Shown: piece after piece, positions 7,313 to 20,741 of the stretch | Position numbering within the stretch: the first letter of the stretch is position 1 | Layout of the letters: each line of letters begins with the position of its first letter | DNA from: Nanobdellota archaeon | GTDB lineage: Archaea > Nanobdellota > Nanobdellia > Pacearchaeales > GW2011-AR1 | NCBI GenBank assembly: GCA_018817905.1 | Contig: JAHISS010000087.1 | Coordinates: forward strand, 985-64,984 | Direction of reading: 5' to 3' | Length of the DNA: 64,000 nucleotides | Position numbers and translations under genes: made by a program | The notes under the pieces: generated by a model | Databases searched by the model: none | What the model was told of the DNA's origin: nothing | Seen by the model: the letters and a program-made list of their open reading frames with translations, nothing else

Positions 7313-7380
7313 GATAGTCGTCTGGTTTATGAGATAATCATTTGGTGCTGGTGGTGGAACATATTTTTATTCAAGATAAT
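7313..7380 (+). repeat. dispersed intergenic repeat, copy A (about 70 nt)
   Basis: GTCGTCTGGTTTATGAGATAATCAT (7317-7341) is identical over 25 nt to 33951-33975. The following TATTTTTATTCAAGATAAT parallels TATTTTTGTTTAAGATAAAT in the other copy. Confidence 0.8.
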
Positions 7381-7772
7381 TATTTCCCAGAAACCAAAAT
7401 TTCCCCGCCGGCTTTTTTAACTTTGTCAATTGCCGAACTTGAAGCTGCGGACGCTTTTATTGTCAGCTTTTCCTTTACTTCGCCAAGTCCGAGAATCTTG
7501 TAACCCTTGAGTTCGATTTCTTTTTTACCTTTGAACTTTTCCACCAGGTCTCTCAAGTTTATTGTTTTCAGTTTTTTAGAGGGTTCTTTTCTCAAAGTTT
7601 TGTCTTTTCCAAAAGGATATTTGATTAAATTCTTTTTCTGGTCTGCTCGTTTTCCAGTTCCTGCTTTTCCAACTCCTCCCCTGTTTCCAGAACCTCTGGC
7701 TTTTTTCTTAAATCCTCTTGCAGCTGTGTGCGAACCGCGATGCCTTGTGTTTTTCTTTCTTTTTTTATTCAT
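7380..7772 (-). CDS. rpl15: 50S ribosomal protein uL15
   Basis: 130 aa. MNKKRKKNTRHRGSHTAARGFKKKARGSGNRGGVGKAGTGKR is the uL15 N-terminal signature. Last gene of the cluster. Confidence 0.92.
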   Translation of the reverse strand: MNKKRKKNTRHRGSHTAARGFKKKARGSGNRGGVGKAGTGKRADQKKNLIKYPFGKDKTLRKEPSKKLKTINLRDLVEKFKGKKEIELKGYKILGLGEVKEKLTIKASAASSSAIDKVKKAGGEILVSGK

Positions 7773-7947
7773 CTTCTTCCTCTGGCTGCATTGCTAAAAC
7801 ATTTTCAGCTTCTTTTTTTTCAATCATATCTTCTGGAACTTTAGCAAAACTTTCAATTGCCTGGCATTCCTCGCATTCTTGCGGAGGATACTGGCCGTAT
7901 TCGACGTTTCCGCATTCGCATTCCCACATGAAACCGTCTTTTGACAT
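7765..7947 (-). CDS. small zinc-ribbon protein (60 aa) inserted between uL30 and uL15 (insert 13)
   Basis: WECECGNVEYGQYPPQECEECQ gives a CxC...CxxC knuckle pair, followed by an acidic tail. Start overlaps the uL30 stop (1 nt) and the end overlaps the uL15 start (8 nt). Confidence 0.6.
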   Translation of the reverse strand: MSKDGFMWECECGNVEYGQYPPQECEECQAIESFAKVPEDMIEKKEAENVLAMQPEEEDE

Positions 7948-8369
7948 TACAACATCCTCCTAACCAAATCATTTATTTTCTCTTTGTTGTCTCCGAGAAC
8001 TGCCTTGCTGCTTGTTCCGAAATGTTTCTTTGAGTCTATTCCTCCTCTTGGCGGATGCAGCCTGAAAAAAGATTTTAAGCCTAAATCGTTCAATGATTTT
8101 TTGGCTAATCCTTCAACAATTTTCTCAGCGCTGATTTTATCTCCAGCTTTAATCGGTTGGCCTCTTTCCTTTATTAGTTGAACAAGAGTTTCTTTGTCTA
8201 TTGTTCCGTATGCGACATAGCTCCTTATTTTTTTTAAGAGTTTCAGATTTTCTTTAGTTGGCGCAAGAAGAACTGCAGAATACTTTCTTCTAAGTTTAAT
8301 TCTGAACAGGGTTTCTGTTACTTCCTTTGGAATTTCTACTTGGCCTGATATTCTTATTGTTAAAATCAT
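7947..8369 (-). CDS. rpl30: 50S ribosomal protein uL30
   Basis: 140 aa. ILTIRISGQV..TLFRIKLRRKYSAVL and FRLHPPRGG are archaeal uL30 hallmarks. Confidence 0.92.
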   Translation of the reverse strand: MILTIRISGQVEIPKEVTETLFRIKLRRKYSAVLLAPTKENLKLLKKIRSYVAYGTIDKETLVQLIKERGQPIKAGDKISAEKIVEGLAKKSLNDLGLKSFFRLHPPRGGIDSKKHFGTSSKAVLGDNKEKINDLVRRML

Positions 8370-9187
8370 TATGTCCTCATCTTTGTTGTTTTTTCAAGAG
8401 CATTGACGCATGCTTTTGCTAAATTGAAAGTTGTTTTTGTTTGTCCCTGCGTTTTTGTGTAGGCGTCTTTGATTCCTGCGAGTTTAAGGATTTTTTTGCA
8501 TTCGTCTCCTGTGACCAAGCCGGTTCCGCGAGGCGCTGGCCAGAGAGTAATTTTTACACTGCCTGATTTTCCCTGAACTTTGAACGGAACTGTGTGGGGA
8601 ATGCTGTCTTCTTTTTCATCTTCTGGAGATTCAAAACCAAGGTTAATTTTTATGAGGTTTAGTTTTGAGTTCCTAACTGCTTTTTCCCTTGCTGGCAGGG
8701 TTTCGCTTGCCTTGCCAAAACCAACTCCAACATGTCCTTTTTTATCTCCAGCAACTGCCATTGCAGAAAATGAAACAACATTTCCCTCCTGGGTTTTCTT
8801 TTGCGTTTGCCTCCACGCTCTTCTCTTGCCTCCGCCAAATTTTCCCTTTGCCTGACCAATTAAAATCAGGTCTGTCTCAATATTCAAAAGCGAATCAACA
8901 ATTTCTGATTCTAAAATCTTTTTTCCTTTTTCTAAAATCTTGTCAATGTCTTTTTCTTTTTTTTCTTTTACTAATCTTCCAAGATTGGTTTTTGGAACCC
9001 ATGCAGCTAACAGCACCTTAGGATCTTCCCTCTGAAATCTCCCATCTCTCCGGCCGTATTGTTTTTTTGAATTTTCTGTTTTTTCTGGCTCTTCTGTTTT
9101 TTCTGTTTCTTTCTCTAACTTTACAACTTCTTCTGGTGTTGCTTCAACAAGATCTTTTGGTTCGTTTTTTGTTTCTTTTTCTGCCAT
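8369..9187 (-). CDS. rps5: 30S ribosomal protein uS5 with Lys/Glu-rich N-terminal extension
   Basis: 272 aa. Core GKRRAWRQTQKKTQEGNVVSFSAMAVAGDKKGHVGVGFGKA and WPAPRGTGLV. The first 45 aa or so are a KE-rich extension. Confidence 0.92.
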   Translation of the reverse strand: MAEKETKNEPKDLVEATPEEVVKLEKETEKTEEPEKTENSKKQYGRRDGRFQREDPKVLLAAWVPKTNLGRLVKEKKEKDIDKILEKGKKILESEIVDSLLNIETDLILIGQAKGKFGGGKRRAWRQTQKKTQEGNVVSFSAMAVAGDKKGHVGVGFGKASETLPAREKAVRNSKLNLIKINLGFESPEDEKEDSIPHTVPFKVQGKSGSVKITLWPAPRGTGLVTGDECKKILKLAGIKDAYTKTQGQTKTTFNLAKACVNALEKTTKMRT

Positions 9188-9188
9188 T

Positions 9189-9509
9189 TTATTTTCCGTG
9201 CCTCCTTAATACTGCGTCTCTTTCTGAATGTCCTTCATCCTTAGGGCCATAGCCCCTATCTCGATTCGGATGTAAAAACGTTACTTTTCCATTATGTATT
9301 GGGTAGGAAATAACATCAATTGCTTGAGTTCCAGGGACCCTTCTAAGAAATCTTGCTCTTTCCGAATGACTCCTATAATTTCCTTCATGTGTCTCACTAA
9401 AAAACAATTCCAATTCTGATCCTTGATCGGGCTGAACTAACACCCTATCTTCAGACACGAGGTTTCTTGCCTTTAACGTTTGGCTTGATTTTATTTCTAA
9501 AGTTGCCAT
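9189..9509 (-). CDS. hypothetical protein interleaved in r-protein operon (insert 12, 106 aa, uL18|uS5 junction)
   Basis: 1-nt spacers on both sides. Its own SD AAGGAGGT lies in the last uL18 codons. Its last codons AAGGAGGCACGGAAAATAA supply the SD for uS5. Arg 12 vs Lys 5. No family recognised. Confidence 0.65.
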   Translation of the reverse strand: MATLEIKSSQTLKARNLVSEDRVLVQPDQGSELELFFSETHEGNYRSHSERARFLRRVPGTQAIDVISYPIHNGKVTFLHPNRDRGYGPKDEGHSERDAVLRRHGK

Positions 9510-9510
9510 T

Positions 9511-9984
9511 TTATAACTTTTCCTTTACCTCCTTAAAGATACTTTTAAGCTTTTCGTTAGCTTCAATTCTTTCTGTTTTTGGCAAGGTGCTTTCTTTATG
9601 CGGGATTTTCAAACCAGCGTCTATTGCTCCTTTTACAAGTGCGTAGATTCTTGAACCGTGAATGTTTCTGTTCAGACCGAAATCTAAAATCGCTTCGTTG
9701 ACTTTTGTCTTTATGTTTTTTACTAGGAGGAATCCGGTTAAGTAAGCGGCTGGAAGAGATTTCAAACTTCCTGATTTTTCTTTTGGCCAACCTTTTTCAA
9801 GGAGTTCCTGCGAGCTCGCCTTTGCTACAACTTTGTCCTGAGCTATTTGCGATTCAACAATCTGAGCGATAATGTAATGATTTGTTTTTCTTACGACTAA
9901 GCGCGGTTTTTCTGACTTCAACATTGTAAATCTTGCTTTGTAGTCTGTTTTTGCTTGTTTTCGGCGACGTTTTAGAGTTTTCAC
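9511..9984 (-). CDS. rpl18: 50S ribosomal protein uL18
   Basis: 157 aa. RRRKQAKTDYKARFTMLKSEKPRLVVRKTNHYIIAQIV is the uL18 signature. Confidence 0.92.
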   Translation of the reverse strand: MKTLKRRRKQAKTDYKARFTMLKSEKPRLVVRKTNHYIIAQIVESQIAQDKVVAKASSQELLEKGWPKEKSGSLKSLPAAYLTGFLLVKNIKTKVNEAILDFGLNRNIHGSRIYALVKGAIDAGLKIPHKESTLPKTERIEANEKLKSIFKEVKEKL

Positions 9985-10397
9985 TTTTCTTCCTCCTGCA
10001 TTTCAGCTAACCTTTCTTTCATGTGAGCCAAACTTCTGAAGTCTGAGGCCCGGATTTCTTTCCGCAATTTGTAATAATCTTCCAGCGAAATTTTCTTTCT
10101 CTTCTTCAAGTTTGAAAGATAAGTTCTTAATTTTCTCGTCATAGTAACATAATCTTGTTTTCTTGTCTTCACTGTTTTCTTTACTGAACCAGCACGTCTT
10201 CTTGTTTTTCTTTTTTTGATTTTTCTCCGTCCCTTTTTTTCCTCTATGAAAATCGCGCCAGATTCTTTCAAATCTTTCATGTCTTGTTTTGTTATTGCTT
10301 CTTTTAATTCTGCCAAGCGCGCGGTGTTGAAAGAGATTCTGTTCTTTCCTGTCTTTAACGCCCTTGCAGCTAACTCTTTTTTCTTTTCAAGTTTCAT
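9981..10397 (-). CDS. rpl19e: 50S ribosomal protein eL19
   Basis: 138 aa. KKELAARALKTGKNRISF...ITKQDMKDLKESGAIFIEEKKGRRK is typical eL19. Confidence 0.92.
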   Translation of the reverse strand: MKLEKKKELAARALKTGKNRISFNTARLAELKEAITKQDMKDLKESGAIFIEEKKGRRKIKKRKTRRRAGSVKKTVKTRKQDYVTMTRKLRTYLSNLKKRKKISLEDYYKLRKEIRASDFRSLAHMKERLAEMQEEEK

Positions 10398-10696
10398 GCT
10401 GTCCCCCGATGTTGTTCGACGAATTCTGAAACTGTCTTAAATTCAGGATGTGTTTCAGGAATTCTGCTCGTTGAAGTAAGGGATGGTTCTAAAACATCTA
10501 AGCCCGATAAATTATAAACACTTCTTAAAAATGCTAACTGACCCTCCACTGGGACTGGTTTTGGATCAATTATTTCTACAACCGTTCCCTTGGTTTTATA
10601 CACTAATCCTTTTGGGATCCTTTGACAAAAAACTTTTTCTCCAGGGTGATAAGATCCTCTAACTTTCAGTTCCCTTGGTCTTGTTTGCGTTGTCAT
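10394..10696 (-). CDS. hypothetical protein interleaved in r-protein operon (insert 11, 100 aa, eL32|eL19 junction)
   Basis: ATGA overlaps with the eL32 stop and the eL19 start. Begins MTTQT. Ends ..ACAGCATGA. No family recognised. Confidence 0.65.
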   Translation of the reverse strand: MTTQTRPRELKVRGSYHPGEKVFCQRIPKGLVYKTKGTVVEIIDPKPVPVEGQLAFLRSVYNLSGLDVLEPSLTSTSRIPETHPEFKTVSEFVEQHRGTA

Positions 10697-11043
10697 TTCT
10701 TCTCCCCCTTAACATTTAAAATTTTTATTTTCTTTTCAGTTGCTTCTTTTATAAGCTCCAACTTTTTCTTTGCTCCGACTTTTGCGAGAATTGCTCCCTG
10801 GTTTTTTCCCAAATCGTTTAGTTCTTTTCTGTTGTGGACTAAAACAACTTGGAGATTTTGGATTTTTCCTGCTTGTTTTTTTGGTTTTTTGTATCCAACT
10901 GAAACTGTTTTTGCATGACCATGCATGTTTAGCCTCATCTTACTGTCGCGGCCCTTTGGTCTTCGCCATTTTTGCAGTTTCTTTCTTCGCTTTCCGATTC
11001 TTGAATGTCTGTCTGCTTCCTGCCTGATGAATTTTTTTTTCAT
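10693..11043 (-). CDS. rpl32e: 50S ribosomal protein eL32
   Basis: 116 aa. FIRQEADRHSRIGKRRKKLQKWRRPKGRDSKMR is the eL32 signature. Confidence 0.92.
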   Translation of the reverse strand: MKKKFIRQEADRHSRIGKRRKKLQKWRRPKGRDSKMRLNMHGHAKTVSVGYKKPKKQAGKIQNLQVVLVHNRKELNDLGKNQGAILAKVGAKKKLELIKEATEKKIKILNVKGEKK

Positions 11044-11585
11044 TATAATCCCCTCCCTGGTTTTGAAACCAAGTGAATACCGTCTTGGAAAATTCTTCGG
11101 TCCCTGCCTCGAACCTTGGTAGCTTTTTCAATATTTGCCATTGTTTTTCCTGCAGCTTCTCGGTCATTAGAAGAAATAGTTACCTTCTGCCCCTTAATTT
11201 GAACTTCGACATTTGGAAAAATTTTTGCATGTCTTGGAGTTTTCTCCCCTAAAAAATTGTTTATTGCGAGTTGATTTCCTTCGACTTTCAAAGTCATCGG
11301 AAAATGAACATTCACTGCCTCTAACTCGTAAACAAACTTCTCTCCTAAACCTCTAAAAAGATTTTTGATGTGCGCGATTTGCGACTTGATGATTTTGTAT
11401 TGGTTTTTGTTTCCTTTTTTACAACTGATGACAATTTCGTTTCCCTGAAGTTGTATTTCTATCTGCGGAATGTTCATATCTCTTGAAATTGAATCAGAAC
11501 CCTTTGTGCAAGTTAGTTTTTTATTTTCATAAGTGCAAGAAATGCCTTCGGGTATTTCAACTTTTTCTAGGATTTGGTGTTTCAT
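11043..11585 (-). CDS. rpl6: 50S ribosomal protein uL6
   Basis: 180 aa. Two-domain uL6 pattern: VEIPEGIS..., HFPMTLKVEGNQLAINNFLGEK, RGRDRRIFQDGI. Confidence 0.92.
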   Translation of the reverse strand: MKHQILEKVEIPEGISCTYENKKLTCTKGSDSISRDMNIPQIEIQLQGNEIVISCKKGNKNQYKIIKSQIAHIKNLFRGLGEKFVYELEAVNVHFPMTLKVEGNQLAINNFLGEKTPRHAKIFPNVEVQIKGQKVTISSNDREAAGKTMANIEKATKVRGRDRRIFQDGIHLVSKPGRGL

Positions 11586-11586
11586 C

Positions 11587-11952
11587 TTATGCTGCGCTCC
11601 TATCTTTCTTACAGGATAATTCTAAAACTGCTTGATAGGGTTTATAGAAACGTTCACGAACAATTTCAATTAATGGTTTGTAATAATCTGGAAAAACAGG
11701 TCTTTCTGTTTTTGGATTAATGCCATATTTTCTAAAATCTGATTGGGCCAAGGGCATGGCTTCAAAAGCTGTGTGATACTCTCTCATCAAAACGTTTGTT
11801 TTACCAGGGTTGCCAATTACCTGTTCTGCCCTGTCTAAATGTGTATGTATAAAATTTGCAACAACTAAAAATTTAGCCATGTCTCCGCTTATAGCCCGTT
11901 GTTCCCAAAGTTTTCCTATTGTGACAAGAGAAGGATTTAATTTTTTAGCCAT
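11587..11952 (-). CDS. hypothetical protein interleaved in r-protein operon (insert 10, 121 aa, uS8|uL6 junction)
   Basis: 1-nt spacers to the uS8 stop and the uL6 start. Ends AGCGCAGCATAA. No family recognised. Confidence 0.65.
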   Translation of the reverse strand: MAKKLNPSLVTIGKLWEQRAISGDMAKFLVVANFIHTHLDRAEQVIGNPGKTNVLMREYHTAFEAMPLAQSDFRKYGINPKTERPVFPDYYKPLIEIVRERFYKPYQAVLELSCKKDRSAA

Positions 11953-11953
11953 C

Positions 11954-12328
11954 TTAATAAAAATAAGCTATCAAGCTTCCTCCGATGTTTTTATCCTGGG
12001 CTGTTTGGTGAGTCATGAGTCCTTGCGATGTTGAAATGATTAAAAATCCGATGTTTTTTGCCGGCAGGTATCTCTTGACGTATTTTTCAATTTCGTCGAC
12101 TTTTACCATGAAGCGCGGCTTGATTGCGTTGCAGTTGTTTAATTTTCCAAGTTCAATCTTTAGGTTTGTTTTGTCGGTTTTGTAACTTTTTACATATCCT
12201 TTTAATTTCGCGATTGCTAAAACAGAACTGAGAAGTTTTGAATGTCTTTTTACTTCTACGATTTCCTTTCCAGCTCTTCGGATGTTCATCATCTGGTTTA
12301 GCGCGTCTGCTACTACATCTTGTGACAT
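11954..12328 (-). CDS. rps8: 30S ribosomal protein uS8
   Basis: 124 aa. DVVADALNQMMNIRRAGKEIVEV and GGSLIAYFY are the uS8 termini. Confidence 0.92.
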   Translation of the reverse strand: MSQDVVADALNQMMNIRRAGKEIVEVKRHSKLLSSVLAIAKLKGYVKSYKTDKTNLKIELGKLNNCNAIKPRFMVKVDEIEKYVKRYLPAKNIGFLIISTSQGLMTHQTAQDKNIGGSLIAYFY

Positions 12329-12329
12329 T

Positions 12330-12560
12330 TTAACTATATTTTTTGAAGCCGATTTCTACTGCGATTTCTCGGAAGCAGTGTCGGCAGATGTTTAGATTAT
12401 ACTGATTGAGGTGAGCGCCGAAGCGACCGCATCTTTCGCATTTTCGCGCGGCGATTCCGGTCTTTCTTTCCTTCGGCTTGCAGTGCTTTAGGAACTTTTT
12501 CATAATTTCTGGTTTGTCCTTCAATTGCTTTGTTATTTTTTTCCAATCTGATGCTGTCAT
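12330..12560 (-). CDS. rps14: 30S ribosomal protein uS14 (zinc type)
   Basis: 76 aa. CERCGRFGAHLNQYNLNICRHCFRE is the Zn-ribbon uS14 core. Has an N-terminal extension relative to typical archaeal uS14. Confidence 0.88.
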   Translation of the reverse strand: MTASDWKKITKQLKDKPEIMKKFLKHCKPKERKTGIAARKCERCGRFGAHLNQYNLNICRHCFREIAVEIGFKKYS

Positions 12561-12862
12561 ATTGTGTCTGCCTCCAAGATTTCCTTAAACCTTTCGAATA
12601 TTTCCATTTCTTTTTCTCCACGCAAACAGTCTGGGTGCATTGTATAAACACTATCATCTCCATTCCTACGCGATATTGTTGAGCCATCGAATAATAATTT
12701 AAAATGCGTGGTGCCGAAAACTTCGATTGATCCTTTGTTGTTGCCTGGTTTAATAAATTGATGATATGGGTATTCTCCATCAACATATTTGAATCTTTCT
12801 CCAGAAGGTCTGACTGGATACCATTCGCCCATTGCCAACTTTGGTTTTGTTTGTGTTGTCAT
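12557..12862 (-). CDS. hypothetical protein interleaved in r-protein operon (insert 9, 101 aa, second ORF at the uL5|uS14 junction)
   Basis: ATGA overlaps at both ends. Begins MTTQT. Last codons CTTGGAGGCAGACACAATATGA carry the SD for uS14. No family recognised. Confidence 0.65.
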   Translation of the reverse strand: MTTQTKPKLAMGEWYPVRPSGERFKYVDGEYPYHQFIKPGNNKGSIEVFGTTHFKLLFDGSTISRRNGDDSVYTMHPDCLRGEKEMEIFERFKEILEADTI

Positions 12863-13215
12863 ATTCTCCTTTGTTCACTCCTTTCAACCATGGCATACAA
12901 ATCTTGAAAGCCTATTGTTCCTTCTTCAATACCCTCACATGGACAGATTTTTCGGATGCTGAAATTACTCCCTTGATCCACTGCTGCCCAATATAGGCGA
13001 AGATATTTTTTGCGAAGTATCTTATCTGTTTGTGCGAATAGTGCTCTTGCCCCGTCTGTATCGGCCACGGTTCCAACATAGTTATATCTAACCCGCCTAT
13101 CTGGGGAAACTATTATATCTCCTTCATGTATAATGGTAATATCTATGAGGGGATTTGCTACTACTACCGCATGTTCACGATGAATTAATGGGGTTGCCGC
13201 TGTCATCTCACTCAA
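12859..13215 (-). CDS. hypothetical protein interleaved in r-protein operon (insert 8, 118 aa, first ORF at the uL5|uS14 junction)
   Basis: 8-nt overlap with the uL5 end and ATGA overlap with insert 9. AAAGGAGAATATGA supplies the SD for insert 9. Arg 11 vs Lys 4. Confidence 0.65.
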   Translation of the reverse strand: MSEMTAATPLIHREHAVVVANPLIDITIIHEGDIIVSPDRRVRYNYVGTVADTDGARALFAQTDKILRKKYLRLYWAAVDQGSNFSIRKICPCEGIEEGTIGFQDLYAMVERSEQRRI

Positions 13216-13744
13216 CCTCTGTCTCGAAGTTTTCTTCGAGGAATTTAATTATTTCTTCAGGGGAAATTTTTTGTTTTTCTGGGAGTTTTCCTCTTTTGAT
13301 TTTTCTTCTCTTAACTCTTACTCCTGCTCTGATAAAACATGCAGTTACATTTAAACCTCTAATTCCAATTTCTCTTTGATATTCTATCCCGGGAATTTCA
13401 ATGTATTCATGGATTCCAAAAGAAAACGAGTTTTCTGCGATTTGCTTTTCGTCGAGCTCGTTGTCAACTGCGCCTAAAAGTTTTTTCAGGATTTCAAAAG
13501 CATGTTTTCCACGCAATGTCACTGATGTTCCAAGAGGTAAGTGCGGCTTCACTCCAAAGTCAGGAATTCTCCGCTTTGGTCCTGCCTTCATGATTTGCGC
13601 TTTTTTTCCTGAAATCATTTCCAAAAGTTTCTGCGACTTTTCAAGATTCGGACCTGTTGCTCCACAGCTAAGAACAACTTTCTCAAGTTTTACTTCTCTC
13701 ATTGGATTTTCTTTTTTTTCCTGGATTTGGGTTTGGGTTGTCAT
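13208..13744 (-). CDS. rpl5: 50S ribosomal protein uL5
   Basis: 178 aa. NPMREVKLEKVVLSCG..., RRIPDFGVKPHLPLGTSVTLRG, GIHEYIEIPGIEY. N-terminal MTTQTQIQEKKE precedes the usual start; an alternative start is M15 at 13702. Confidence 0.92.
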   Translation of the reverse strand: MTTQTQIQEKKENPMREVKLEKVVLSCGATGPNLEKSQKLLEMISGKKAQIMKAGPKRRIPDFGVKPHLPLGTSVTLRGKHAFEILKKLLGAVDNELDEKQIAENSFSFGIHEYIEIPGIEYQREIGIRGLNVTACFIRAGVRVKRRKIKRGKLPEKQKISPEEIIKFLEENFETEVE

Positions 13745-14013
13745 CTTTGTCCTCCCGGACCTCTGAAATAAGCATTCGTAAATTGAATTAGTAAAATACT
13801 GTAAAGTCTCTCCATTGCATTAACTAAACCGAGATATGCCTCTTGATTCGGTGGCGATGCCAGGGTTCTTCTCATTTCTCCAAAACGTTGATTAATTCTG
13901 TCCCTTGCTGCGAAAAAACCTTTAATGTTATTTCCTTCTTCGGCATATCTTCTTTGTTCGCTTACATCTTTCAATACTTCTTCTGTGAAAGATGCGATTT
14001 TTGCTAAACTCAT
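13741..14013 (-). CDS. hypothetical protein interleaved in r-protein operon (insert 7, 90 aa, eS4|uL5 junction)
   Basis: ATGA overlaps with the eS4 stop and the uL5 start. Last codons GGTCCGGGAGGACAAAGATGA carry the SD for uL5. Arg 10 vs Lys 3. Confidence 0.65.
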   Translation of the reverse strand: MSLAKIASFTEEVLKDVSEQRRYAEEGNNIKGFFAARDRINQRFGEMRRTLASPPNQEAYLGLVNAMERLYSILLIQFTNAYFRGPGGQR

Positions 14014-14630
14014 AGCGCCACCACCTGCTGTCTTTCCAAAACAGTTTCTTTATCTTTGAGCTGTATCTTTGCCTTGCTTCCTTCGACAGAAATTATTTTT
14101 CCCTTGTTCCCAATATATTTTCCAGCAATTATGAAACAGTTCTTTGTTTTTTCCAAGGGAACGTGTTTTGTTATTTTTCCAGAAAAGTCGAGATAAACTG
14201 TGTCCTGCGTGTTTATTTTCCTGTCTTCTGAAAGAACGTTGGAACCGTCGTGCAAGTTCAATTGGGTTTTGTTTCCCTTTAATATTTTTTTGTCTATCAC
14301 TTTGCAGATTCTTTCCTTGTCTTTTGTTTTTTCAAATGTGAACTTTCCATTTGCCGTGAAAGTCAAAACATAAGATTCTCCTGCTTCGAAAACGTTGAAG
14401 AGCCGAATTGAATCTCTGTAATCTTTAATTTCTTTTCCGTTGAGTTTTAGCAATTTTTGTTTTATCATTTCTCTTACTTCTTTTGCTGTTGTCGCGAGGT
14501 TTAACATGTTCCGGACAGCTACGACGACGGGAACCGAGTTTTCCAAATCAACTAAAGACCTAGCTATGTATCTGGTTCCTTTTCTTTCTATTGGAATTTT
14601 TTTTGTTAGCTTAGCTCTTGTTTGGTACAT
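14010..14630 (-). CDS. rps4e: 30S ribosomal protein eS4
   Basis: 206 aa. KLTKKIPIERKGTRYIARS...VVVAVRNMLNLATTAKEVREMI is typical eS4. Confidence 0.92.
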   Translation of the reverse strand: MYQTRAKLTKKIPIERKGTRYIARSLVDLENSVPVVVAVRNMLNLATTAKEVREMIKQKLLKLNGKEIKDYRDSIRLFNVFEAGESYVLTFTANGKFTFEKTKDKERICKVIDKKILKGNKTQLNLHDGSNVLSEDRKINTQDTVYLDFSGKITKHVPLEKTKNCFIIAGKYIGNKGKIISVEGSKAKIQLKDKETVLERQQVVAL

Positions 14631-15021
14631 TTTTCTTTTCCTTTGATTTGTTTAAAGCAGATATTCTTTTTTTGTCTTCTAAGTTTAAAGTTTGAATCTG
14701 CAACGAACTTGGATGGAACCAGACGCTGACTTTTGTTCCGTCTTTTTTTGTCCGCTGGATGTTTTCCAAAGCAATTCTTGTTCTTTTCAAATCAATTGTG
14801 ATGACTTTTGCTTTTTTCTTCTTGAACGAACCGCGCATGACAAGCACTTCATCATTCTTCCTGATTGGAATGCTTTTCTTGCCGTGCTTTTTCCTTAATT
14901 CTTTTGAAAGCTGGGCGCTTAAAAACTTATGCTTTGTGTGAAGCGGCGCGTTAGCTAAGTATTTTCGCTGCTTGCGAGGCTGCTTCGAAGATTTCCATTG
15001 GGTTGAGAATTTGTTTTTCAT
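14611..15021 (-). CDS. rpl24: 50S ribosomal protein uL24
   Basis: 136 aa. SKQPRKQRKYLANAPLHTKHKFLSAQLSKELRKKHG..IPIRKNDEVLVMRGSFKKKKAKV (KOW motif). 20-nt overlap with the eS4 start. Confidence 0.92.
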   Translation of the reverse strand: MKNKFSTQWKSSKQPRKQRKYLANAPLHTKHKFLSAQLSKELRKKHGKKSIPIRKNDEVLVMRGSFKKKKAKVITIDLKRTRIALENIQRTKKDGTKVSVWFHPSSLQIQTLNLEDKKRISALNKSKEKKNVPNKS

Positions 15022-15022
15022 T

Positions 15023-15322
15023 TTATGCTGCAGTCCCGCTACTTCTAATGAAATGACTAACTACTATAAGTTGGATTTCCAAGGCATTTTGAAGGTGCCC
15101 GTTAATTTCCCTTAAATGATTAACATTTGAAACATCTATGTTTTCGACAATGGCTAAGTGTTCACCAATTCTCTCATTATAATACCTTGCTCCCACTGTA
15201 TTACCAGATATTATTGCAGTCGCTAATTCATCTACGTAGCGCTTAAGAGCTTGGCTGGACCTTTTAGCCACTAAATAATTCCTTCTTTCAGAATCCTGAC
15301 TTAATCTAATTGTTGTATTCAT
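15023..15322 (-). CDS. hypothetical protein interleaved in r-protein operon (insert 6, 99 aa, uL14|uL24 junction)
   Basis: Track ORF 15023-15385 trimmed to the ATG at 15322 (MNTTIRLS...), 1 nt after the uL14 stop. 1-nt spacer to the uL24 ATG. Ends ACTGCAGCATAA. Arg 9 vs Lys 2. Confidence 0.6.
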   Translation of the reverse strand: MNTTIRLSQDSERRNYLVAKRSSQALKRYVDELATAIISGNTVGARYYNERIGEHLAIVENIDVSNVNHLREINGHLQNALEIQLIVVSHFIRSSGTAA

Positions 15323-15323
15323 T

Positions 15324-15749
15324 TTACAAAACATACTGAGCAATCTTGGCGACAGATGGCCAACGCTCCTGAACCTCCCTTGCAACTGGACCTTTAATTT
15401 GAGTTCCTTTTGGATTGCCTTTGTCGTCTTTCATTAAGGCTACGGCGTTGTCTTCGAAGCAGACTCTCTCACCTGTTAGTCTCCGGTAAGGTTTCTTTTG
15501 GCGGATTACAACTGCATCAAACACTTGGCCTTTCATGTCCGGCTTTCCTTTTCTGACAGAGACTTTTACCCAGTCCGATATTTTAGCATACTGCTGTCTT
15601 TTCTTTGTTGTTTTTCCGCCTTTTACTCCTGTGATTCTGACAATTCTCGCGCCGCTGTTGTCTGAAGCAAGAACCTGACTGCCAATGTTTAAACCGCGCG
15701 TTGCTCTTGCACTAATCGCCTTTCCGAATATTTTTTTTGATTTTGTCAT
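15324..15749 (-). CDS. rpl14: 50S ribosomal protein uL14
   Basis: 141 aa. GLNIGSQVLASDNSGARIVRITGVKG...FEDNAVALM is the uL14 signature. Confidence 0.92.
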   Translation of the reverse strand: MTKSKKIFGKAISARATRGLNIGSQVLASDNSGARIVRITGVKGGKTTKKRQQYAKISDWVKVSVRKGKPDMKGQVFDAVVIRQKKPYRRLTGERVCFEDNAVALMKDDKGNPKGTQIKGPVAREVQERWPSVAKIAQYVL

Positions 15750-16057
15750 TATTCGATTTCCTCCAAAGCTTTCTTAATTAAAGGATAAAGCGGATGACGC
15801 CTGTTTGCCCAGTAATGATTGTGACTCTTCTGAACAGAAGAGAACGTTCCATTTGGAAAAAGGACAAAACTATAAACCGGAATACAGCCAATAGTGTGGA
15901 AATTCTCCGTGTCCACTACGATAAGACTCCCGTCTTCCATGCCTGCGTATCGTCCTTCTATCCCTGAAGCCTCTCCGATAACTACATTATCTCCAATCTT
16001 AGTGTTTCTCGCATCTTCTGCTGTTCTTACTAACAATGCGGGTCTTCGTGGACTCAT
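15749..16057 (-). CDS. hypothetical protein interleaved in r-protein operon (insert 5, 102 aa, uS17|uL14 junction); weak Rpp29-like motif
   Basis: ATGA overlap with the uS17 stop and TAATG overlap with the uL14 start. GCTTTGGAGGAAATCGAATAATG supplies the uL14 SD. KIGDNVVIGEASGIEGR...IPVYSFVLFPNG loosely recalls the Rpp29 Sm-like pattern (LIGxxVxV..GIEGxVVDET..IPK..xFxF). This assignment is not secure. Confidence 0.6.
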   Translation of the reverse strand: MSPRRPALLVRTAEDARNTKIGDNVVIGEASGIEGRYAGMEDGSLIVVDTENFHTIGCIPVYSFVLFPNGTFSSVQKSHNHYWANRRHPLYPLIKKALEEIE

Positions 16058-16398
16058 TCTCCCCCTCCCTCTTTTTTCCTAATCTTCTCAACAACAATGA
16101 AATGAATCATCTTGCTCAATGGCCTGCATTCCTGGACTTTGATTAAATCACCAATATGGATTTCATGGGCAAGTTCTTCTGGCAAACGGGCGTGGATTCT
16201 TGTTTTCTTTTTGAGAAAGCGCTCGTATTTTTTAATTTTAACTGTGCGCTCGAATTCTATGGCGACTCGGGTTGGGAATTTCCTTGTGACAACTCCTTGA
16301 AAAATCCTGCCGCGGGTTGAGACTTTAGTTCTGACTAAGTTTTCTGTTTTCTTTTTTGTGGATTTCTCTATCTGTTTTTTCTTTGACGTTTCTGTCAT
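16054..16398 (-). CDS. rps17: 30S ribosomal protein uS17
   Basis: 114 aa. GRIFQGVVTRKFPTRVAIEFERTVKIKKYERFLKKKTRIHA..IGDLIKVQECRPLSK is the uS17 OB-fold signature. Confidence 0.92.
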   Translation of the reverse strand: MTETSKKKQIEKSTKKKTENLVRTKVSTRGRIFQGVVTRKFPTRVAIEFERTVKIKKYERFLKKKTRIHARLPEELAHEIHIGDLIKVQECRPLSKMIHFIVVEKIRKKEGGGE

Positions 16399-16424
16399 TT
16401 TCTCTTTGCTTTGCGATGTGCGAG

Positions 16425-16721
16425 TTAATCGCTGATGGACTCTTCGGGAAAGCCTAGCTTCACAAGAATCGGCCGGAGCTTTTTCTTGTGGTCGCCTTGC
16501 AGTTCGATGACGCCGTTTTTAGACGTGCCGCCGCATGCCAGTTCTTCTTTCAGGCGTTTTCCTGTTGCCTTGATGTCCACGTGTTTGTCAAACCCCTCGA
16601 CAAGTGTTATTTTTTTTCCGTATCTCCTTGTCTCGGTGCGCACTTTTATGTGCTGTTCGCTTTTAGCGATTTCTTCAAACACATCGGTTTCTGTTGGTAA
16701 ACCGAATTCGTTTGAATCCAT
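16425..16721 (-). CDS. sui1: translation initiation factor aIF1 (SUI1)
   Basis: 98 aa. IKVRTETRRYGKKITLVEGF...LKEELACGGTSKNGVIELQGDHKKKL is the SUI1 signature. Confidence 0.9.
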   Translation of the reverse strand: MDSNEFGLPTETDVFEEIAKSEQHIKVRTETRRYGKKITLVEGFDKHVDIKATGKRLKEELACGGTSKNGVIELQGDHKKKLRPILVKLGFPEESISD

Positions 16722-16942
16722 TATTTCTTTTTCAACCCATCCTCTTTCAAGGATTTGTTGAATTTTTCTGATTTCATGAATGTATTTAATCGTGAAATTG
16801 CCCTTTTAATCTCTTTGGTTTTAGCATTTGTCTTGTTTGCAGCGACATTTGCTCTGACCAGTTCCATTTTCAAATCTTTTAACTTGCTATCTCTCTCCCT
16901 TGCTGTCATCTTTGCTATTTCTTTTGATTTTAGGATTGCCAT
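16721..16942 (-). CDS. rpl29: 50S ribosomal protein uL29
   Basis: 73 aa. ILKSKEIAKMTARERDSKLKDLKMELVRANVAANKTNAKTKEIKRAISRLNT is typical uL29. Confidence 0.9.
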   Translation of the reverse strand: MAILKSKEIAKMTARERDSKLKDLKMELVRANVAANKTNAKTKEIKRAISRLNTFMKSEKFNKSLKEDGLKKK

Positions 16943-16948
16943 TTTATG

Positions 16949-17254
16949 CTATTGAACCTCCCCAGGTATATTACTTCTCCTTCTTAGTTCAGTTAATTCT
17001 TGTTCTAACTCTCCTAATGAAGACATCAATTCTACTCTCATTTGACTGGGCGCTTTTTGTGATAAATGATCTGTGGGAATGCAGGGAAGTTCTTGGCTAA
17101 TGAATTGATACACCTCTACATCCAAACTTGCCAATTGGTCAAGGAGTCCTGAATATCCTGGCAAGCCAACAGTTTGAACACCTTGCACTCTCTTTGTAAG
17201 ACTCTGGGTTTGTTTATAGAGTTCTTCGTATACTTCTCGGCCTTGTGCAATCAT
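16949..17254 (-). CDS. hypothetical protein interleaved in r-protein operon (insert 4, 101 aa, uS3|uL29 junction)
   Basis: ATGA overlap with the uS3 stop. Last codons GGGGAGGTTCAATAG give the SD for uL29, 6 nt downstream. Gln/Leu/Glu-rich and helical-looking. Confidence 0.62.
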   Translation of the reverse strand: MIAQGREVYEELYKQTQSLTKRVQGVQTVGLPGYSGLLDQLASLDVEVYQFISQELPCIPTDHLSQKAPSQMRVELMSSLGELEQELTELRRRSNIPGEVQ

Positions 17255-17973
17255 TCTTTTTCCTCCTCAACTTTCTTAGGCGCTTTCTTTTTGACTGTCT
17301 TCTTATCTGTCTTTTTCTTAACTTCGGTTTCTTCTTGCTGGTTCATTTCTTCTAAAGTAACCTTTATTTTTTGTCTGAGAGCTTCATCAATTTTTATTTG
17401 GTCGTGAAGTTCTGCTTCTGGTCTGAGAATAGCGACTTTGACACCGACAACTCCGGCGATTGTTGTTGCCTGGCTTTGGGCCCTGTTGACTACTTTTGCG
17501 GTATCGCCGGTTTTTTTCAAATAACCCTGGGTGAATCTCCAGGTTCTGGCTCTGTCGCTTGGCAGTTTTCCTGACAAAACAATTTCTGTTCCTAAAGCTC
17601 CTGCTTTCATTATCTGTTGTAATGTTCTGTAAGCGATAACTTTGAATTTTAATGAGCCTCTTCTTTCAAGTAACAAAGCGATGTCATCTGCAACTAATTG
17701 CGCGTCAAGCACTGGCTGCGTAATTTCTACAATTTCAATGTGCGGATTGTCGAGGTTGAATCTTTTTTTAAGTATTCTTGTCAGCTCGTCTATTTTTTCG
17801 CCTTTCCTTCCAATTACTAATCCTGGACGCGAAGTGAAAACTTTTATTTTTTCTCCTACTGGCGTATACTCAATGCTGACGTCGCTGATTTTTCCCTTCC
17901 CCAAACTATTTTTGATGTAATCTCTTACTCTGAACTCATCTTTCTTAAACGCGACAAATCTTTTTTCTTCCAT
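17251..17973 (-). CDS. rps3: 30S ribosomal protein uS3 with Lys/Glu-rich C-terminal tail
   Basis: 240 aa. KH-domain region PGLVIGRKGEKIDELT and GALGTEIVLSGKLPSDRARTWRF. The last 40 aa or so are a KE-rich tail. Confidence 0.92.
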   Translation of the reverse strand: MEEKRFVAFKKDEFRVRDYIKNSLGKGKISDVSIEYTPVGEKIKVFTSRPGLVIGRKGEKIDELTRILKKRFNLDNPHIEIVEITQPVLDAQLVADDIALLLERRGSLKFKVIAYRTLQQIMKAGALGTEIVLSGKLPSDRARTWRFTQGYLKKTGDTAKVVNRAQSQATTIAGVVGVKVAILRPEAELHDQIKIDEALRQKIKVTLEEMNQQEETEVKKKTDKKTVKKKAPKKVEEEKE

Positions 17974-17974
17974 T

Positions 17975-18415
17975 TTATGCGAAAACCTCCCTTAGCACTC
18001 TTAAAGCGTTATCTCTTTTTTTCCAATCTGGGTTCGTTACTCTGAGATAAGACCTGCCGTGACCTTCATCAGTAAAATGTTCTACGGTGCAATCTCTCAC
18101 ATGATAAATAAGGGAGGTTGAATCATGATATGCGCTATGATCTGGACTTGTAATGGGGGCACTAAAGTCTGTATCGCCAAAGCAGAGTATAATCGGATTA
18201 TCAATTCTGCGTTGAGGACTGGCTAATTTGGCTAATGCATTTCCTAAGTTTGCATTAGCACTTGTCACAAATTCTAACATTTCATGCATTTCAGGAAAAT
18301 CCCCCGCATCAAAGATATATAAATCAAACTCGTCGTCTCTGGCTGAACCGATTTTCCATTCAAACCCCCCAATACGATTTTGTCCAATTAACTTTTGTTG
18401 TGTTGCTTTTGCCAT
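17975..18415 (-). CDS. hypothetical protein interleaved in r-protein operon (insert 3, 146 aa, uL22|uS3 junction)
   Basis: Start overlaps the uL22 stop (TAATG). Last codons GGGAGGTTTTCGCATAA supply the SD for uS3, 1 nt downstream. Asp/His-rich (DHSAYHDSTSLIYH, HFTDEGHG). No family recognised. Confidence 0.65.
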   Translation of the reverse strand: MAKATQQKLIGQNRIGGFEWKIGSARDDEFDLYIFDAGDFPEMHEMLEFVTSANANLGNALAKLASPQRRIDNPIILCFGDTDFSAPITSPDHSAYHDSTSLIYHVRDCTVEHFTDEGHGRSYLRVTNPDWKKRDNALRVLREVFA

Positions 18416-19029
18416 TATTCCTTTCCTCCTTGTTTCTTAGGAAATTCCTTTGCTTTTAGAATAATGTTTGTCCTCTTTGATAATGTGCCGCCGCGACGCA
18501 TTTGTCTTCGCGCCCAAGAAGCAGAGGCGATGGAAATTCGCGTGGTTTCAAGTTCAAGTCCGTTTGTTATCGCGTTGCCTTTCAAAGCTTTCAAAAGATT
18601 AATAAAATATCCTGATGCTTTAATCGGGTATCTGCCTCGCTCCATGCTCCCTTTTCTGTGCGGCGTTTCTCCCCTGAACGGAACTGCCTGCTTAAACTTG
18701 GAAACTTTCTCAACGTCAGAAATTGCCTGGTCTATTTTTTTGTTTTTGATAAATCTGCAAAGATACACTGAATGTTTTTTCGAAATCGGCAATCCTGCGC
18801 CTCTGGCAATTGCTTCTTCTTTCTTAACTTTAGGAATTTCTTTCTTTTTTTCTTCCTTCTTCTCTGACTTTTCTTCAACTTTATCTTCCAATTTTTCTTC
18901 AGCTGTTTCTTTTTTTTCTTGCCTCATCTTTTCTTCTATTTCTTTGGTTTTTTCTTTGTCGACTGGCAACGGCTTTGCTTCTATCTTTTTCTTTTTTTCT
19001 TCTGCTGGTTGTTTATTTTCTTCTTTCAT
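18415..19029 (-). CDS. rpl22: 50S ribosomal protein uL22 with a ~75-aa Lys/Glu-rich N-terminal extension
   Basis: 204 aa. Core ARGAGLPISKKHSVYLCRFIKNKKIDQAISDVE...PFRGETPHRKG..GRYPIKA. Confidence 0.9.
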   Translation of the reverse strand: MKEENKQPAEEKKKKIEAKPLPVDKEKTKEIEEKMRQEKKETAEEKLEDKVEEKSEKKEEKKKEIPKVKKEEAIARGAGLPISKKHSVYLCRFIKNKKIDQAISDVEKVSKFKQAVPFRGETPHRKGSMERGRYPIKASGYFINLLKALKGNAITNGLELETTRISIASASWARRQMRRGGTLSKRTNIILKAKEFPKKQGGKE

Positions 19030-19030
19030 T

Positions 19031-19447
19031 TTATTTCTTCATTGCTCTCGATGATTTAGTTGCTCCGATTCCTGCGCTGCCGTGGTTTACTCTTGTTCGC
19101 GTTGGTGCGAATTCTCCCAACCGGTGTCCAATCATTTCAAAAGTTATTAGAACTTCTTGGAAATTTTTTCCGTTGTGAACGCCGATTGTCAAACCAACAA
19201 GTTTGGGAACTATGACTATGTCTCTTAGATGTGTCCTGATTTTTTTGCCTTTTGCAACTTTTCTATCGCATCTTTTTATGAATTTTTCAATTGAATCAAA
19301 AGTTCTTAAGACAGTTCTCCTGCTGCGTGAAGGAAGGAACTTGGCTATCTCTCTTGCATCTAGGGTTTTTAATTCTTCTATGGGCCTGCCTCTGTAAATT
19401 TGTTCTCTTCGCTTTACTTTTTCTTTTTCTTTCTTTTTGTGTGCCAT
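19031..19447 (-). CDS. rps19: 30S ribosomal protein uS19
   Basis: Track ORF trimmed to MAHKKKEKEK (ATG at 19447), 1 nt after the uL2 stop. Core GLTIGVHNGKNFQEVLITFEMIGHRLGEFAPTR. Confidence 0.9.
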   Translation of the reverse strand: MAHKKKEKEKVKRREQIYRGRPIEELKTLDAREIAKFLPSRSRRTVLRTFDSIEKFIKRCDRKVAKGKKIRTHLRDIVIVPKLVGLTIGVHNGKNFQEVLITFEMIGHRLGEFAPTRTRVNHGSAGIGATKSSRAMKK

Positions 19448-19448
19448 T

Positions 19449-20150
19449 TTATTTCCTACAACCTGTTCTTCTTGGACGAACATGCCCAACTTTTCTTCCT
19501 GGGGGAGCGTTACGTTTTGCTATCTTTTGTTTGACTCTCTTGCCTCGGCCAGAACCAAACGGGTGGTCTACTGCGTTAGCTTTTACTGCGGAAGTTCTCG
19601 GCCATAATTTTGATTTTGCTTTCATCTTGTAATACTTTTTCCCAGCTGTGACAAAAGGCTTTGCGACGCGGCCGTCACCGGCAATTCTTCCGATTGTTGC
19701 GCGACAGTTCTCGTTGAGGGTTACAACTTTCTTATTGGGCATGGTGACTGTTACTTCTGTGTTTTCTAATTTTTTTGAGAGTATTGCTGACGAGCCAGCT
19801 GTTCGCATCATTTTTCCTCCGTCTCCAGGATTTTTCTCTATGTTAAAAATATGAGTTCCTGGAGGTATTTTGTTTAATGGTAAAATGTTTCCTTCTCCGG
19901 GACTGGTGTTAATGGAAATTTTTTGCCCGACAAATGCGCCGTTGAACGCAGCGTTGTAGAAAGTTTTGTTCTTGATTTGGACTTTCATCAATGGAGCAGA
20001 ATGTGCGGCAGAATGGATGATTGCGATAATCTCTGCCTCGCCTTGTGCTTCGACTGGAGGATAAGCAATCTTTTTGTTGAACGCTTTCTTTCTGACTCTG
20101 TAAGTTAAACTTCCCTTGCCCCGCGCTTGTTGAATTATTCGTTTTCCCAT
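19449..20150 (-). CDS. rpl2: 50S ribosomal protein uL2
   Basis: 233 aa. GKRIIQQARGKGS..., NAVDHPFGSGRGKR and PGRKVG are uL2 hallmarks. Confidence 0.93.
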   Translation of the reverse strand: MGKRIIQQARGKGSLTYRVRKKAFNKKIAYPPVEAQGEAEIIAIIHSAAHSAPLMKVQIKNKTFYNAAFNGAFVGQKISINTSPGEGNILPLNKIPPGTHIFNIEKNPGDGGKMMRTAGSSAILSKKLENTEVTVTMPNKKVVTLNENCRATIGRIAGDGRVAKPFVTAGKKYYKMKAKSKLWPRTSAVKANAVDHPFGSGRGKRVKQKIAKRNAPPGRKVGHVRPRRTGCRK

Positions 20151-20151
20151 T

Positions 20152-20499
20152 TTATTCTCTTCTTCTAAGATTTACTTCTACCATGTCATCAAACAACTCC
20201 TTGTATCTTACATCACTTTGGTCTAAGGTGATATATCTACCACCAAGAGTTGTAACTATTCCATTCTTCCCAAATCTAAGCCCATTTTCAGACACGATAA
20301 ATAAATAAATGGAATCTCTTGTGCGTGGGAAAGCAAACGAGAAGTCTCCTTCTTCTGAACCTCGATATTGGGCTAGTGTTCCCCCAGCAGACAAGCCATA
20401 GCCGTCTATTCTTACTACTTTTTTAACCGCCCGATGCAGCTCATCTAAACTATTTACTTGTGTCTCTATATCTTCTATATCCCTTGCTTCTTGTGCCAT
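20152..20499 (-). CDS. hypothetical protein interleaved in r-protein operon (insert 2, 115 aa, uL23|uL2 junction)
   Basis: Start overlaps the uL23 stop (TAATG). 1-nt spacer to the uL2 ATG. Arg 12 vs Lys 4. No family recognised. Confidence 0.65.
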   Translation of the reverse strand: MAQEARDIEDIETQVNSLDELHRAVKKVVRIDGYGLSAGGTLAQYRGSEEGDFSFAFPRTRDSIYLFIVSENGLRFGKNGIVTTLGGRYITLDQSDVRYKELFDDMVEVNLRRRE

Positions 20500-20741
20500 T
20501 ATATCATCCCCAGCTTTGTCGCGACGTCGATGGCTGGGTTCTCCTTTGCAAATTTTACATAAGCATATTTTTTGTTATTGCGAAGCAAGGTCCTGACTTT
20601 TTCAACTTTCACTTTGAATGTTTCTTCTACTTCTTTCTTGATTTCTTCTTTTGAGAATTTTCTCCCAACCTGGAACAAGAGAGTGTTGTCTATGTCCACC
20701 ATTTTTACTGCTTTTTCTGAAGTTATTGGTTTGAGTATCAT
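20499..20741 (-). CDS. rpl23: 50S ribosomal protein uL23
   Basis: 80 aa. ILKPITSEKAVKMVDIDNTLLFQV..KEEIKKEVEETFKVKVEKVRTL is the uL23 signature. Confidence 0.9.
   Translation of the reverse strand: MILKPITSEKAVKMVDIDNTLLFQVGRKFSKEEIKKEVEETFKVKVEKVRTLLRNNKKYAYVKFAKENPAIDVATKLGMI

Follow-up and report, generated by a model that had tools for sequence, protein, structure and literature searches.

The main ribosomal-protein (r-protein) operon on a 64,000-nucleotide stretch of DNA from a Nanobdellota archaeon (GCA_018817905.1, contig JAHISS010000087.1, positions 985 to 64,984; hereafter the window) encodes uL22, uS5, uS14 and uS3 proteins with terminal extensions which, judged from the sequences, are translated and shared throughout a clade of relatives. 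In uS5 and uL22 this extension is made up of a short conserved peptide lying far from the core of the protein and of a hypervariable linker rich in lysine and glutamate (K/E) that is predicted to be disordered. The long forms of these proteins appear to be functionally constrained and, in part, functional. Lineage-specific extensions of r-proteins are a known kind of feature, and we do not describe a new kind of ribosome; newly described are the N-terminal extensions of uL22, uS5 and uS14, the conserved peptides and an internal insertion of uS5, for none of which an earlier description was found in the literature searched.

The operon is of the archaeal S10/spc type, belongs to a DPANN archaeon of Pacearchaeota type and occupies window positions 7380-22755 on the minus strand in the order uL3, uL4, uL23, uL2, uS19, uL22, uS3, uL29, aSUI1, uS17, uL14, uL24, eS4, uL5, uS14, uS8, uL6, eL32, eL19, uL18, uS5, uL30 and uL15, with additional open reading frames (ORFs) interleaved between the r-protein genes (Table 1). 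Its uL22 sequence was found verbatim in NCBI GCA_018815165.1 ('Nanoarchaeota archaeon') as well as in independent Logan and ENA assemblies, so the arrangement of the operon is not an assembly artefact. The relatives used for comparison (82 in total) comprise 80 species-representative loci, whose genomes are labelled as Pacearchaeota, Woesearchaeota or Nanoarchaeota metagenome-assembled genomes, and two loci (L004 and L005) from metagenome look-ups; the one strain that is close (L086) shows 2 differences in 19,187 nucleotides (nt) and is too similar for the ratio of non-synonymous to synonymous substitution rates (dN/dS). The sizes of the extensions were measured by alignment to solved ribosome chains in the PDB (with phmmer in the case of uL22), none of the matched structures being a DPANN ribosome.

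Table 1. Extended ribosomal proteins, their parts and the interleaved ORFs in the window
Feature	Position	Strand	Length or residues	Details
uL22	18415-19029	minus	204 aa	
uL22 N-terminal extension	18823..19029	minus	residues 1-69	MKEENKQPAEEKKKKIEAKPLPVDKEKTKEIEEKMRQEKKETAEEKLEDKVEEKSEKKEEKKKEIPKVK; from translation and PDB alignment offsets
uL22 conserved peptide	18931..18978	minus	residues 18-33	AKPLPVDKEKTKEIEE; consensus AKPLPVDKEKxKEIE
uL22 core domain	18415..18822	minus		divergent; NCBI name 'hypothetical protein'
Antisense ORF opposite uL22	18395..19054	plus	219 codons	F/S/L-rich; open reading frame
uS5	8369-9187	minus	272 aa	
uS5 N-terminal extension	9029..9187	minus	residues 1-53	net acidic; from PDB offsets
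uS5 conserved N-terminal peptide	9110..9187	minus		MAEKETKNEPKDLVEATPEEVVKLEK; clade consensus MAEKETKNxPKDLIEAxPEE
uS5 basic Gly-rich insertion	8813..8866	minus	residues ~108-125	ILIGQAKGKFGGGKRRAW; gap in PDB alignments
uS14	12330-12560	minus	76 aa	
uS14 N-terminal extension	12501..12560	minus	residues 1-20	MTASDWKKITKQLKDKPEIM; basic; from PDB offset
uS3	17251-17973	minus	240 aa	
uS3 C-terminal K/E-rich tail	17254..17361	minus	residues 205-240	PDB alignment ends at residue 204
Interleaved ORFs between r-protein genes	20152-20499, 17975-18415, 16949-17254, 15749-16057	minus	90-146 aa	
Interleaved ORFs between r-protein genes	15023-15334, 13741-14013, 12859-13206, 12557-12862	minus	90-146 aa	
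Interleaved ORFs between r-protein genes	11587-11952, 10394-10696, 9189-9509	minus	90-146 aa	
Smaller interleaved ORF	21630-21812	minus	~60 aa	

A first-pass annotation of this DNA, made from the sequence alone, had credited uL22 with about 75 N-terminal residues of KE repeat. The extension is present, but its size is smaller: residues 73/74 are matched to residues 17-19 of archaeal chains 150-156 amino acids (aa) long, which leaves about 55 extra N-terminal residues. Lysine and glutamate account for 63% of residues 1-69. Among the relatives the segment before the core anchor has a median length of 72 residues (interquartile range 52-78, range 0-119) and a median net charge of +3; it is present in 80 of the 82 and kept in 118 of the 120 best homologues, and in more distant relatives it can be S/Q/P-rich. 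The conserved peptide within it was found in 18 of 30 aligned metagenomic homologues and in 6 of 82 species representatives, which are the closest ones, and its codons in five species vary at 2 first, 1 second and 11 third positions over 15 codons. In an AlphaFold2 model built on a 30-sequence alignment, the block means of the predicted local distance difference test (pLDDT) are 40-53 for residues 1-60, most core blocks reaching 82 or more; the sole helix of the extension spans residues 27-40 (14 residues, block-mean pLDDT ~52-53), and residues 39-59 score below 50 and are without secondary structure. The DNA encoding the linker harbours a weak tandem repeat of period 12 (18837-18901). In one relative (L010; 9832 and 10001-10387) an extension with the KPLPVDKEK peptide lies upstream of a frame break, which is followed by a core ORF of 123 aa; either the gene is split or the assembly contains a frameshift.

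The core of this protein is divergent enough to score below the Pfam cutoff (PF00237, Ribosomal_L22: 25.2 bits against 28 bits, covering residues 75-175) and to be named 'hypothetical' by NCBI. Its position in the operon is kept (uL2-uS19-uL22-(ORF)-uS3, an order shared by the window and its relatives), phmmer matched uL22 chains of the PDB down to E=2.3e-11, and the top Foldseek matches of the modelled core were all uL22 chains (E ~1e-12, target-normalised template modelling (TM) score 0.6-0.8). The Foldseek match of the predicted structure settles the identity of the protein as uL22, and the clade-specific features explain its escape from annotation. An antisense ORF of 219 codons, which had been put down to the extension, does exist, but the extension alone is not its cause, as the frame is open across all 204 codons of uL22; with a sense strand of 67% purine, this ORF is an artefact of the purine-rich strand.

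In uS5, both S5 domains pass Pfam (PF00333 with 61.1 bits, cutoff 27.1; PF03719 with 78 bits, cutoff 21.5), and archaeal uS5 chains of the PDB are matched with E=1e-42. In the top-scoring archaeal chains (235-236 aa), residues 5-7 are the counterpart of residues 53/54, so that about 47 residues are extra, in agreement with the ~45 aa first proposed. The best 120 homologues are all 254-309 aa long and all extended, nearly all of them with 98-100% query coverage, and in 69 species a median of 54 residues (range 32-88) precedes the core anchor, with a median net charge of -4 over the first 28 residues. At the distal end stands the conserved peptide, in which 30 sequences of 65-79% identity all share M1, A2, E5, K11, D12, E15, P18 and E19, although these residues are encoded by varied synonymous codons; the strict pattern occurs in 45 of the 69 species, and inspection reveals visible variants in most of the other 24. 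It is followed by a linker of 0 to ~60 hypervariable residues, with a weak tandem repeat of period 9 in the coding DNA (9060-9114). An AlphaFold2 model, likewise based on a 30-sequence alignment, gives residues 1-50 block-mean pLDDT values of 34-48 (most core blocks exceed 85), scores under 50 for the majority of residues 1-53, and a single short helix (19-28) in low-scoring blocks.

Within uS5 there is furthermore a basic, glycine-rich insertion that is absent from the archaeal chains aligned. Here the 22-residue segment G111-T132 (GQAKGKFGGGKRRAWRQTQKKT) is almost entirely invariant in the 30 sequences, and the motif KG.FGGGKR occurs in the uS5 ORFs of 70 of 72 species, the two exceptions being ORFs of 40 and 102 aa. 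The initial description of the extensions as KE low complexity therefore applies to the linkers only; uS5 and uL22 also hold conserved peptides, and uS5 an invariant insertion.

The uS14 protein is of the zinc-binding type Z (PF00253 with 35.5 bits, cutoff 27; CERCG...CRHC present; alignment to 'S14 type Z' chains). As annotated, it is extended at the N-terminus: residue 27 pairs with residue 7 of archaeal chains of 50-56 aa, which corresponds to 20 additional aa. In all 74 species the anchor is preceded by 28-29 residues, and the median length of the protein is 76 aa; the 20 extra residues, near-identical among the 12 species listed, carry a median net charge of +7. In uS3, where KH_2 (44.6 bits) and Ribosomal_S3_C (63.4 bits) are both above the Pfam cutoffs and the PDB match has E=1.6e-44, residues 4-204 align with residues 5-204 of a 209-aa chain; the KE-rich C-terminal tail is thus real but adds about 31 residues to that chain rather than the ~40 proposed. 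After the anchor this basic and variable tail (median net charge +5) has a median length of 39 residues in 81 species versus 16-17 in two solved chains, and its last codons (GAGGAGGAA, ...VEEEKE; 17254-17275) double as the Shine-Dalgarno site of the next ORF. An N-terminal extension had been assigned to uL5 as well; it was rejected, as residue 11 of uL5 pairs with residue 16 of chains of 186-188 aa. Elsewhere the ribosome appears to be contracted while uL22, uS5, uS14 and uS3 are extended: uL18 (9511-9984) has 157 aa versus 174-205 aa in every matched solved archaeal orthologue (17-48 residues shorter), and eS4 (14010-14630) has 206 aa versus 235-243 aa (29-37 residues shorter).

Translation of the long forms is indicated by the layout of the genes and by the pattern of substitutions. 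The ATG of uL22 is located 1 nt past the stop codon of uS19, and the ATGs of uS5 and uS3 each lie 1 nt past the stop of the interleaved ORF before them and are preceded by GGAGG; the frame of uL22 is open in nearly all relatives despite many indels. Since the codons of the motifs vary almost only at third or synonymous positions, the segments are translated and under purifying selection. Nor is their composition a habit of the whole genome, because long K/E tracts are nearly confined to r-proteins in the window: among its ~90 ORFs such tracts occur in uL22 (78 residues), uS5 (57), uS3 (30) and uL23 (26), and the sole other long tract belongs to an E/Q-rich non-ribosomal protein (40304-41089). 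No other protein of the window, or of ~1.6 Mb of loci from relatives, was found to contain the uS5 or uL22 peptide.

We favour, with a probability of roughly 0.55, the interpretation that the extensions are tethers whose conserved peptides, together with the basic segments, establish new contacts at the surface of the ribosome. Judging from established ribosome structures, the extended termini should face the solvent: uS3, uS5 and uS14 are located by the mRNA entry and the head-body junction of the small subunit, and the globular domain of uL22 lies on the solvent side of the large subunit near the rim of the exit tunnel. The K/E linkers would most likely serve as flexible and highly soluble tethers that drift almost neutrally through slippage of their purine-rich GAA/AAA codons, and the conserved peptides and basic segments would most likely contact rRNA or neighbouring proteins; such contacts may stabilise or fine-tune a ribosome whose other parts, namely the shortened uL18 and eS4, are reduced. 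Three observations weigh against this interpretation. Direct binding of the acidic uS5 peptide to rRNA is improbable; between the uS5 extension and the uS3 tail neither length nor charge shows co-variation among species (rho 0.11 and -0.04), which gives no support to a direct contact between the two; and the confinement of the uL22 peptide to the nearest relatives, together with an extension of 0-119 residues elsewhere, fits weak constraint.

The same length spread, which is also seen in the uS5 linker, could mean that the extensions are functionless low-complexity tails, generated by purine/AT mutational bias and replication slippage and tolerated at solvent-facing termini. The weak tandem repeats in the linker-coding DNA, sense strands of 64-67% purine and the low pLDDT of the extensions are in accord with such an origin. 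So is the correlation between the number of interleaved ORFs per operon and the length of the uL22 extension, which hints at a general gain of sequence (Spearman rho 0.41, compared with 0.33 for the uS3 tail and 0.00 for the uS5 extension; phylogenetically uncorrected, loci L004-L085). Neutral drift is, however, contradicted by the invariant N-terminal residues of uS5 within the set of 65-79% identity, by the nearly invariant 22-residue segment around its insertion, by the conserved uS14 extension of nearly constant length and by the restriction of changes in the uL22 motif almost entirely to third codon positions, and comparable K/E tracts are missing from the non-ribosomal proteins of the window bar the one at 40304-41089. 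Neutrality probably holds for the linkers and not for the whole extensions, for which we regard it as an unlikely, though serious, explanation.

If pure neutrality is the main rival for the linkers, for the conserved peptides it is the recruitment of a factor in trans. The distal peptides could be handles on flexible linkers that bind such a factor and keep it in place, that of uS5 at the mRNA entry and that of uL22 near the tunnel exit, and the architecture, i.e. a conserved peptide of ~16-26 residues, a variable disordered linker and a domain anchored in the ribosome, would fit this role. The peptides are unique to uS5 and uL22, and the acidity of the uS5 peptide would make a protein a likelier partner than rRNA, although the narrow phylogenetic distribution of the uL22 peptide speaks against recruitment, which we consider rather improbable. 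The model for such a design is the P-stalk, in which aP1 or P1-P2 combine an anchored domain, a flexible acidic linker and a conserved terminal peptide that recruits translation GTPases. Its layout of anchored domain, variable charged disordered linker and short conserved terminal peptide is shared by uS5 and uL22, whereas the proteins, their ribosomal sites and the polarity (N-terminal in our case) are different, which makes it a resemblance in design and not homology. More speculative still is the idea, drawn from the same analogy, that the uS5 and uL22 peptides might be docking handles for a lineage-specific factor in the ribosome of an obligate episymbiont, a factor that would possibly be a product of the horizontally exchanged ORFs of the operon (see below) or host-derived.

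Other known elements resemble the extensions in part. Eukaryotic uS5 (RPS2) has a basic, RG/RGG-rich N-terminal extension before its core start 'WVPVTKLGRLV'. It is thus found in the same protein, at the same terminus and with a similar length, several eukaryotic uS5 chains aligning from query residues 27-45 and hence having ~15-45 residues before the core. In contrast to the basic Arg/Gly-rich sequence of RPS2, the extension studied here is acidic and K/E-rich with MAEKETKN..PKDLIE..PEE, and the basic Gly-rich element (KGKFGGGKRRAW) is internal in uS5; since there is no sequence similarity between the two extensions, they are of independent origin. Residues 33-64 of uL22 (EKMRQEKKETAEEKLEDKVEEKSEKKEEKKKE) contain 24 K, E or D among 32 residues (75%), no W, Y, F or P and no run of five like charges, and thus qualify as a KEKE motif, a term for stretches of at least 12 residues with more than 60% K plus E/D, without W, Y, F or P and without five consecutive like charges. 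By contrast, an ER/K single alpha-helix, reportedly a continuous stable helix of more than ~30 residues with alternating E and K/R, was rejected for the uL22 linker, as AlphaFold2 gives a helix for residues 27-40 only, a prediction that is weak evidence.

Long tails of this kind might also be common in archaeal orthologues and thus nothing lineage-specific. For uS3 this is the case, its tail being ordinary for archaea: solved archaeal chains have 186-318 aa, and in a survey of low-complexity regions in 1334 bacterial and 102 archaeal proteomes (Ntountoumi et al. 2019, PMC6821194) archaeal S3 is among the r-proteins that most often contain such regions, with at least 10 archaeal S3 orthologues. 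The supplement of that survey further includes one archaeal L22 with a K/E-rich region of 45 residues and bacterial S5 proteins with N-terminal low-complexity regions that are G/R- or A/E/P-rich. What these cases share with ours are terminal A-, E- or K-rich regions and archaeal S3 as a frequent carrier; the L22 region, however, is C-terminal (positions 151-196), whereas the uL22 extension is N-terminal, and peptides conserved at the end of a linker, the internal uS5 insertion and the uS14 extension are not described there. The solved archaeal ribosomes matched lack the N-terminal extensions (uL22 chains of 150-156 aa, uS5 of 202-236 aa, uS14 of 50-56 aa), with the partial exception of a 184-aa uL22 chain from a Pyrobaculum calidifontis 50S entry, which has ~20 extra N-terminal residues. 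Their absence there and their presence in nearly all of the ~80 relatives bear out the proposal of lineage-specific expansions; the peptides and the uS5 insertion are restricted to the Pacearchaeota-type clade in the data gathered. We found nothing specific on r-protein extensions in the literature on DPANN or Pacearchaeota, and a 2026 Nanobdellota preprint does not treat them in 12 of the 54 passages covered by a term search. An ordinary archaeal feature, which the first-pass annotation had named as the outcome that would speak against its proposal, is accordingly very improbable for uL22, uS5 and uS14, whose ordinary orthologues have no such long tails, and valid for uS3 only.

The other such outcome, i.e. 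that the true starts lie downstream and the extensions are untranslated leader, might draw on the first ATG of uL22 being without a clear GGAGG and on an in-frame ATG at codon 35, yet it was rejected and has a negligible probability. The conserved peptides, with almost only synonymous changes, precede every possible downstream start; the genes of the operon are closely packed, with just 1 nt between the upstream stop codon and the first ATG; indels are many, but nearly all relatives preserve the open frame; and the long forms appear in independent NCBI, JGI and ENA gene calls.

The interleaved ORFs represent a second peculiarity of the operon. In the window there are eleven of 90-146 aa, each of them translationally coupled via an ATGA overlap or a TAA-N-ATG junction, and the last codons of many contain the GGAGG for the next gene. 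The GGAGG of downstream genes is likewise embedded in the ends of upstream genes at 18415-18440 (uL22 ...QGGKE), 16054-16080 (uS17 ...EGGGE) and 9981-10000 (eL19); some of the E/G richness at these termini thus reflects dual coding that serves translational coupling. The interleaved ORFs of the window have no match in Pfam, PHROGs, PADLOC or NCBIfam. In the 82 relatives, 216 gaps of more than 150 nt separate adjacent r-protein genes, and ORFs on the same strand cover at least 90% of the gap in 93% of them (median coverage 99.8%), which argues that the inserts are maintained as ORFs. Neither their presence nor their sequence is conserved, however: 198 of the 257 insert ORFs are BLASTP singletons, the number per operon ranges from 0 (in 19 of 72 near-complete operons) to 11 (in the window and in L069), and the window and L004 share no related inserts though their uL22 proteins are 68% identical. 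Hot junctions for insertion are uL14/uL24, uL23/uL2 and uS17/uL14, and for the ORF at 17975-18415 only about five relatives turned up in a set of 1.84 billion cluster representatives.

Some insert families occur at different junctions, which implies movement between them. Inserts of ~200 aa encoding an RNase T/DEDD-type exonuclease (e.g. L043 2522-3118, L069 16745-17374) are located at uL4/uL23 in seven species and at eL32/eL19 in one, and another family (L024 5057-5404, L044 10602-10961, L060 8567-8869) is found at uL2/uS19, uL23/uL2 and uL22/uS3. The insert at uS8/uL6 (11587-11952) shares 96% DNA and 91% protein identity with its counterpart in L088, while the r-protein genes are only 67-82% identical. 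This tract of high identity (~475 nt; window 11400-12150 versus L088 9800-10560) includes ~60 nt of uS8 and ~45 nt of uL6 before identity collapses, and it carries, as far as the sequences tell, the signature of a recent horizontal exchange by recombination in conserved flanks; the lower identity of the protein suggests a large share of non-synonymous differences. The eL32/eL19 insert (10394-10696) exhibits the same pattern with 85% DNA and 74% protein identity. Hence at least one interleaved ORF has been exchanged horizontally. Beyond Shine-Dalgarno, stop and start signals, no shared ends of the kind left by transposons were seen by eye in 13 pairs of insert boundaries, no search for repeats or hairpins having been run, and a literature search on ORFs inserted into r-protein operons yielded nothing specific.

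With neither presence nor sequence conserved, the interleaved ORFs do not qualify as components of the ribosome. The suggestion that ORFs and extensions together make up one remodelled ribosome periphery finds no support on this point, nor in the extensions of operons without interleaved ORFs (e.g. L005); apart from the weak correlation with uL22 length, the two are independent phenomena. Unlike the other inserts, a zinc-ribbon-like ORF of 60 aa between uL30 and uL15 (7765-7947, minus strand; CxC...CxxC and an acidic tail, no Pfam match) is conserved, being detected by tblastn in 30 of 64 related operons, in 29 of them with the cysteine pattern, and is a candidate for a lineage-specific ribosome-associated protein.

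Some further features of the locus may be recorded. The start of the 296-aa uL4 ORF (20738-21628, minus strand) was rejected in favour of a probable start at M37, which gives 260 aa as in the NCBI call and in relatives; 15 residues precede the core anchor in relatives versus 51 in the window ORF, the upstream part of which overlaps the small ORF between uL3 and uL4. An IS200-like Y1 transposase (PF01797, E=2e-22) is located at 6428-6907 on the minus strand, ~470 nt downstream of uL15, and stands together with two further ORFs between uL15 and SecY (3573-4970). A search for rRNA and tRNA genes in the window found none.

Lineage-specific tails of r-proteins are a well-known theme, and the extensions alone are therefore an incremental finding. 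Non-conserved interleaved ORFs, on the other hand, are very unusual in what is the most conserved prokaryotic operon and more surprising than the extensions; the horizontally exchanged ORFs are the larger prize of this region and merit a study of their own. Should the uS5 and uL22 peptides prove to be docking handles, they would constitute, for DPANN archaea, a layer of translational control that has not been seen before. The map obtained here consists of an acidic uS5 peptide, an invariant basic uS5 insertion, a fixed basic uS14 extension of 20 residues, a fast-evolving K/E tether on uL22 and shortened uL18 and eS4. The extension features serve as clade markers for one large uncultured clade, and the extensions are targets for structural work on minimal symbiont ribosomes.

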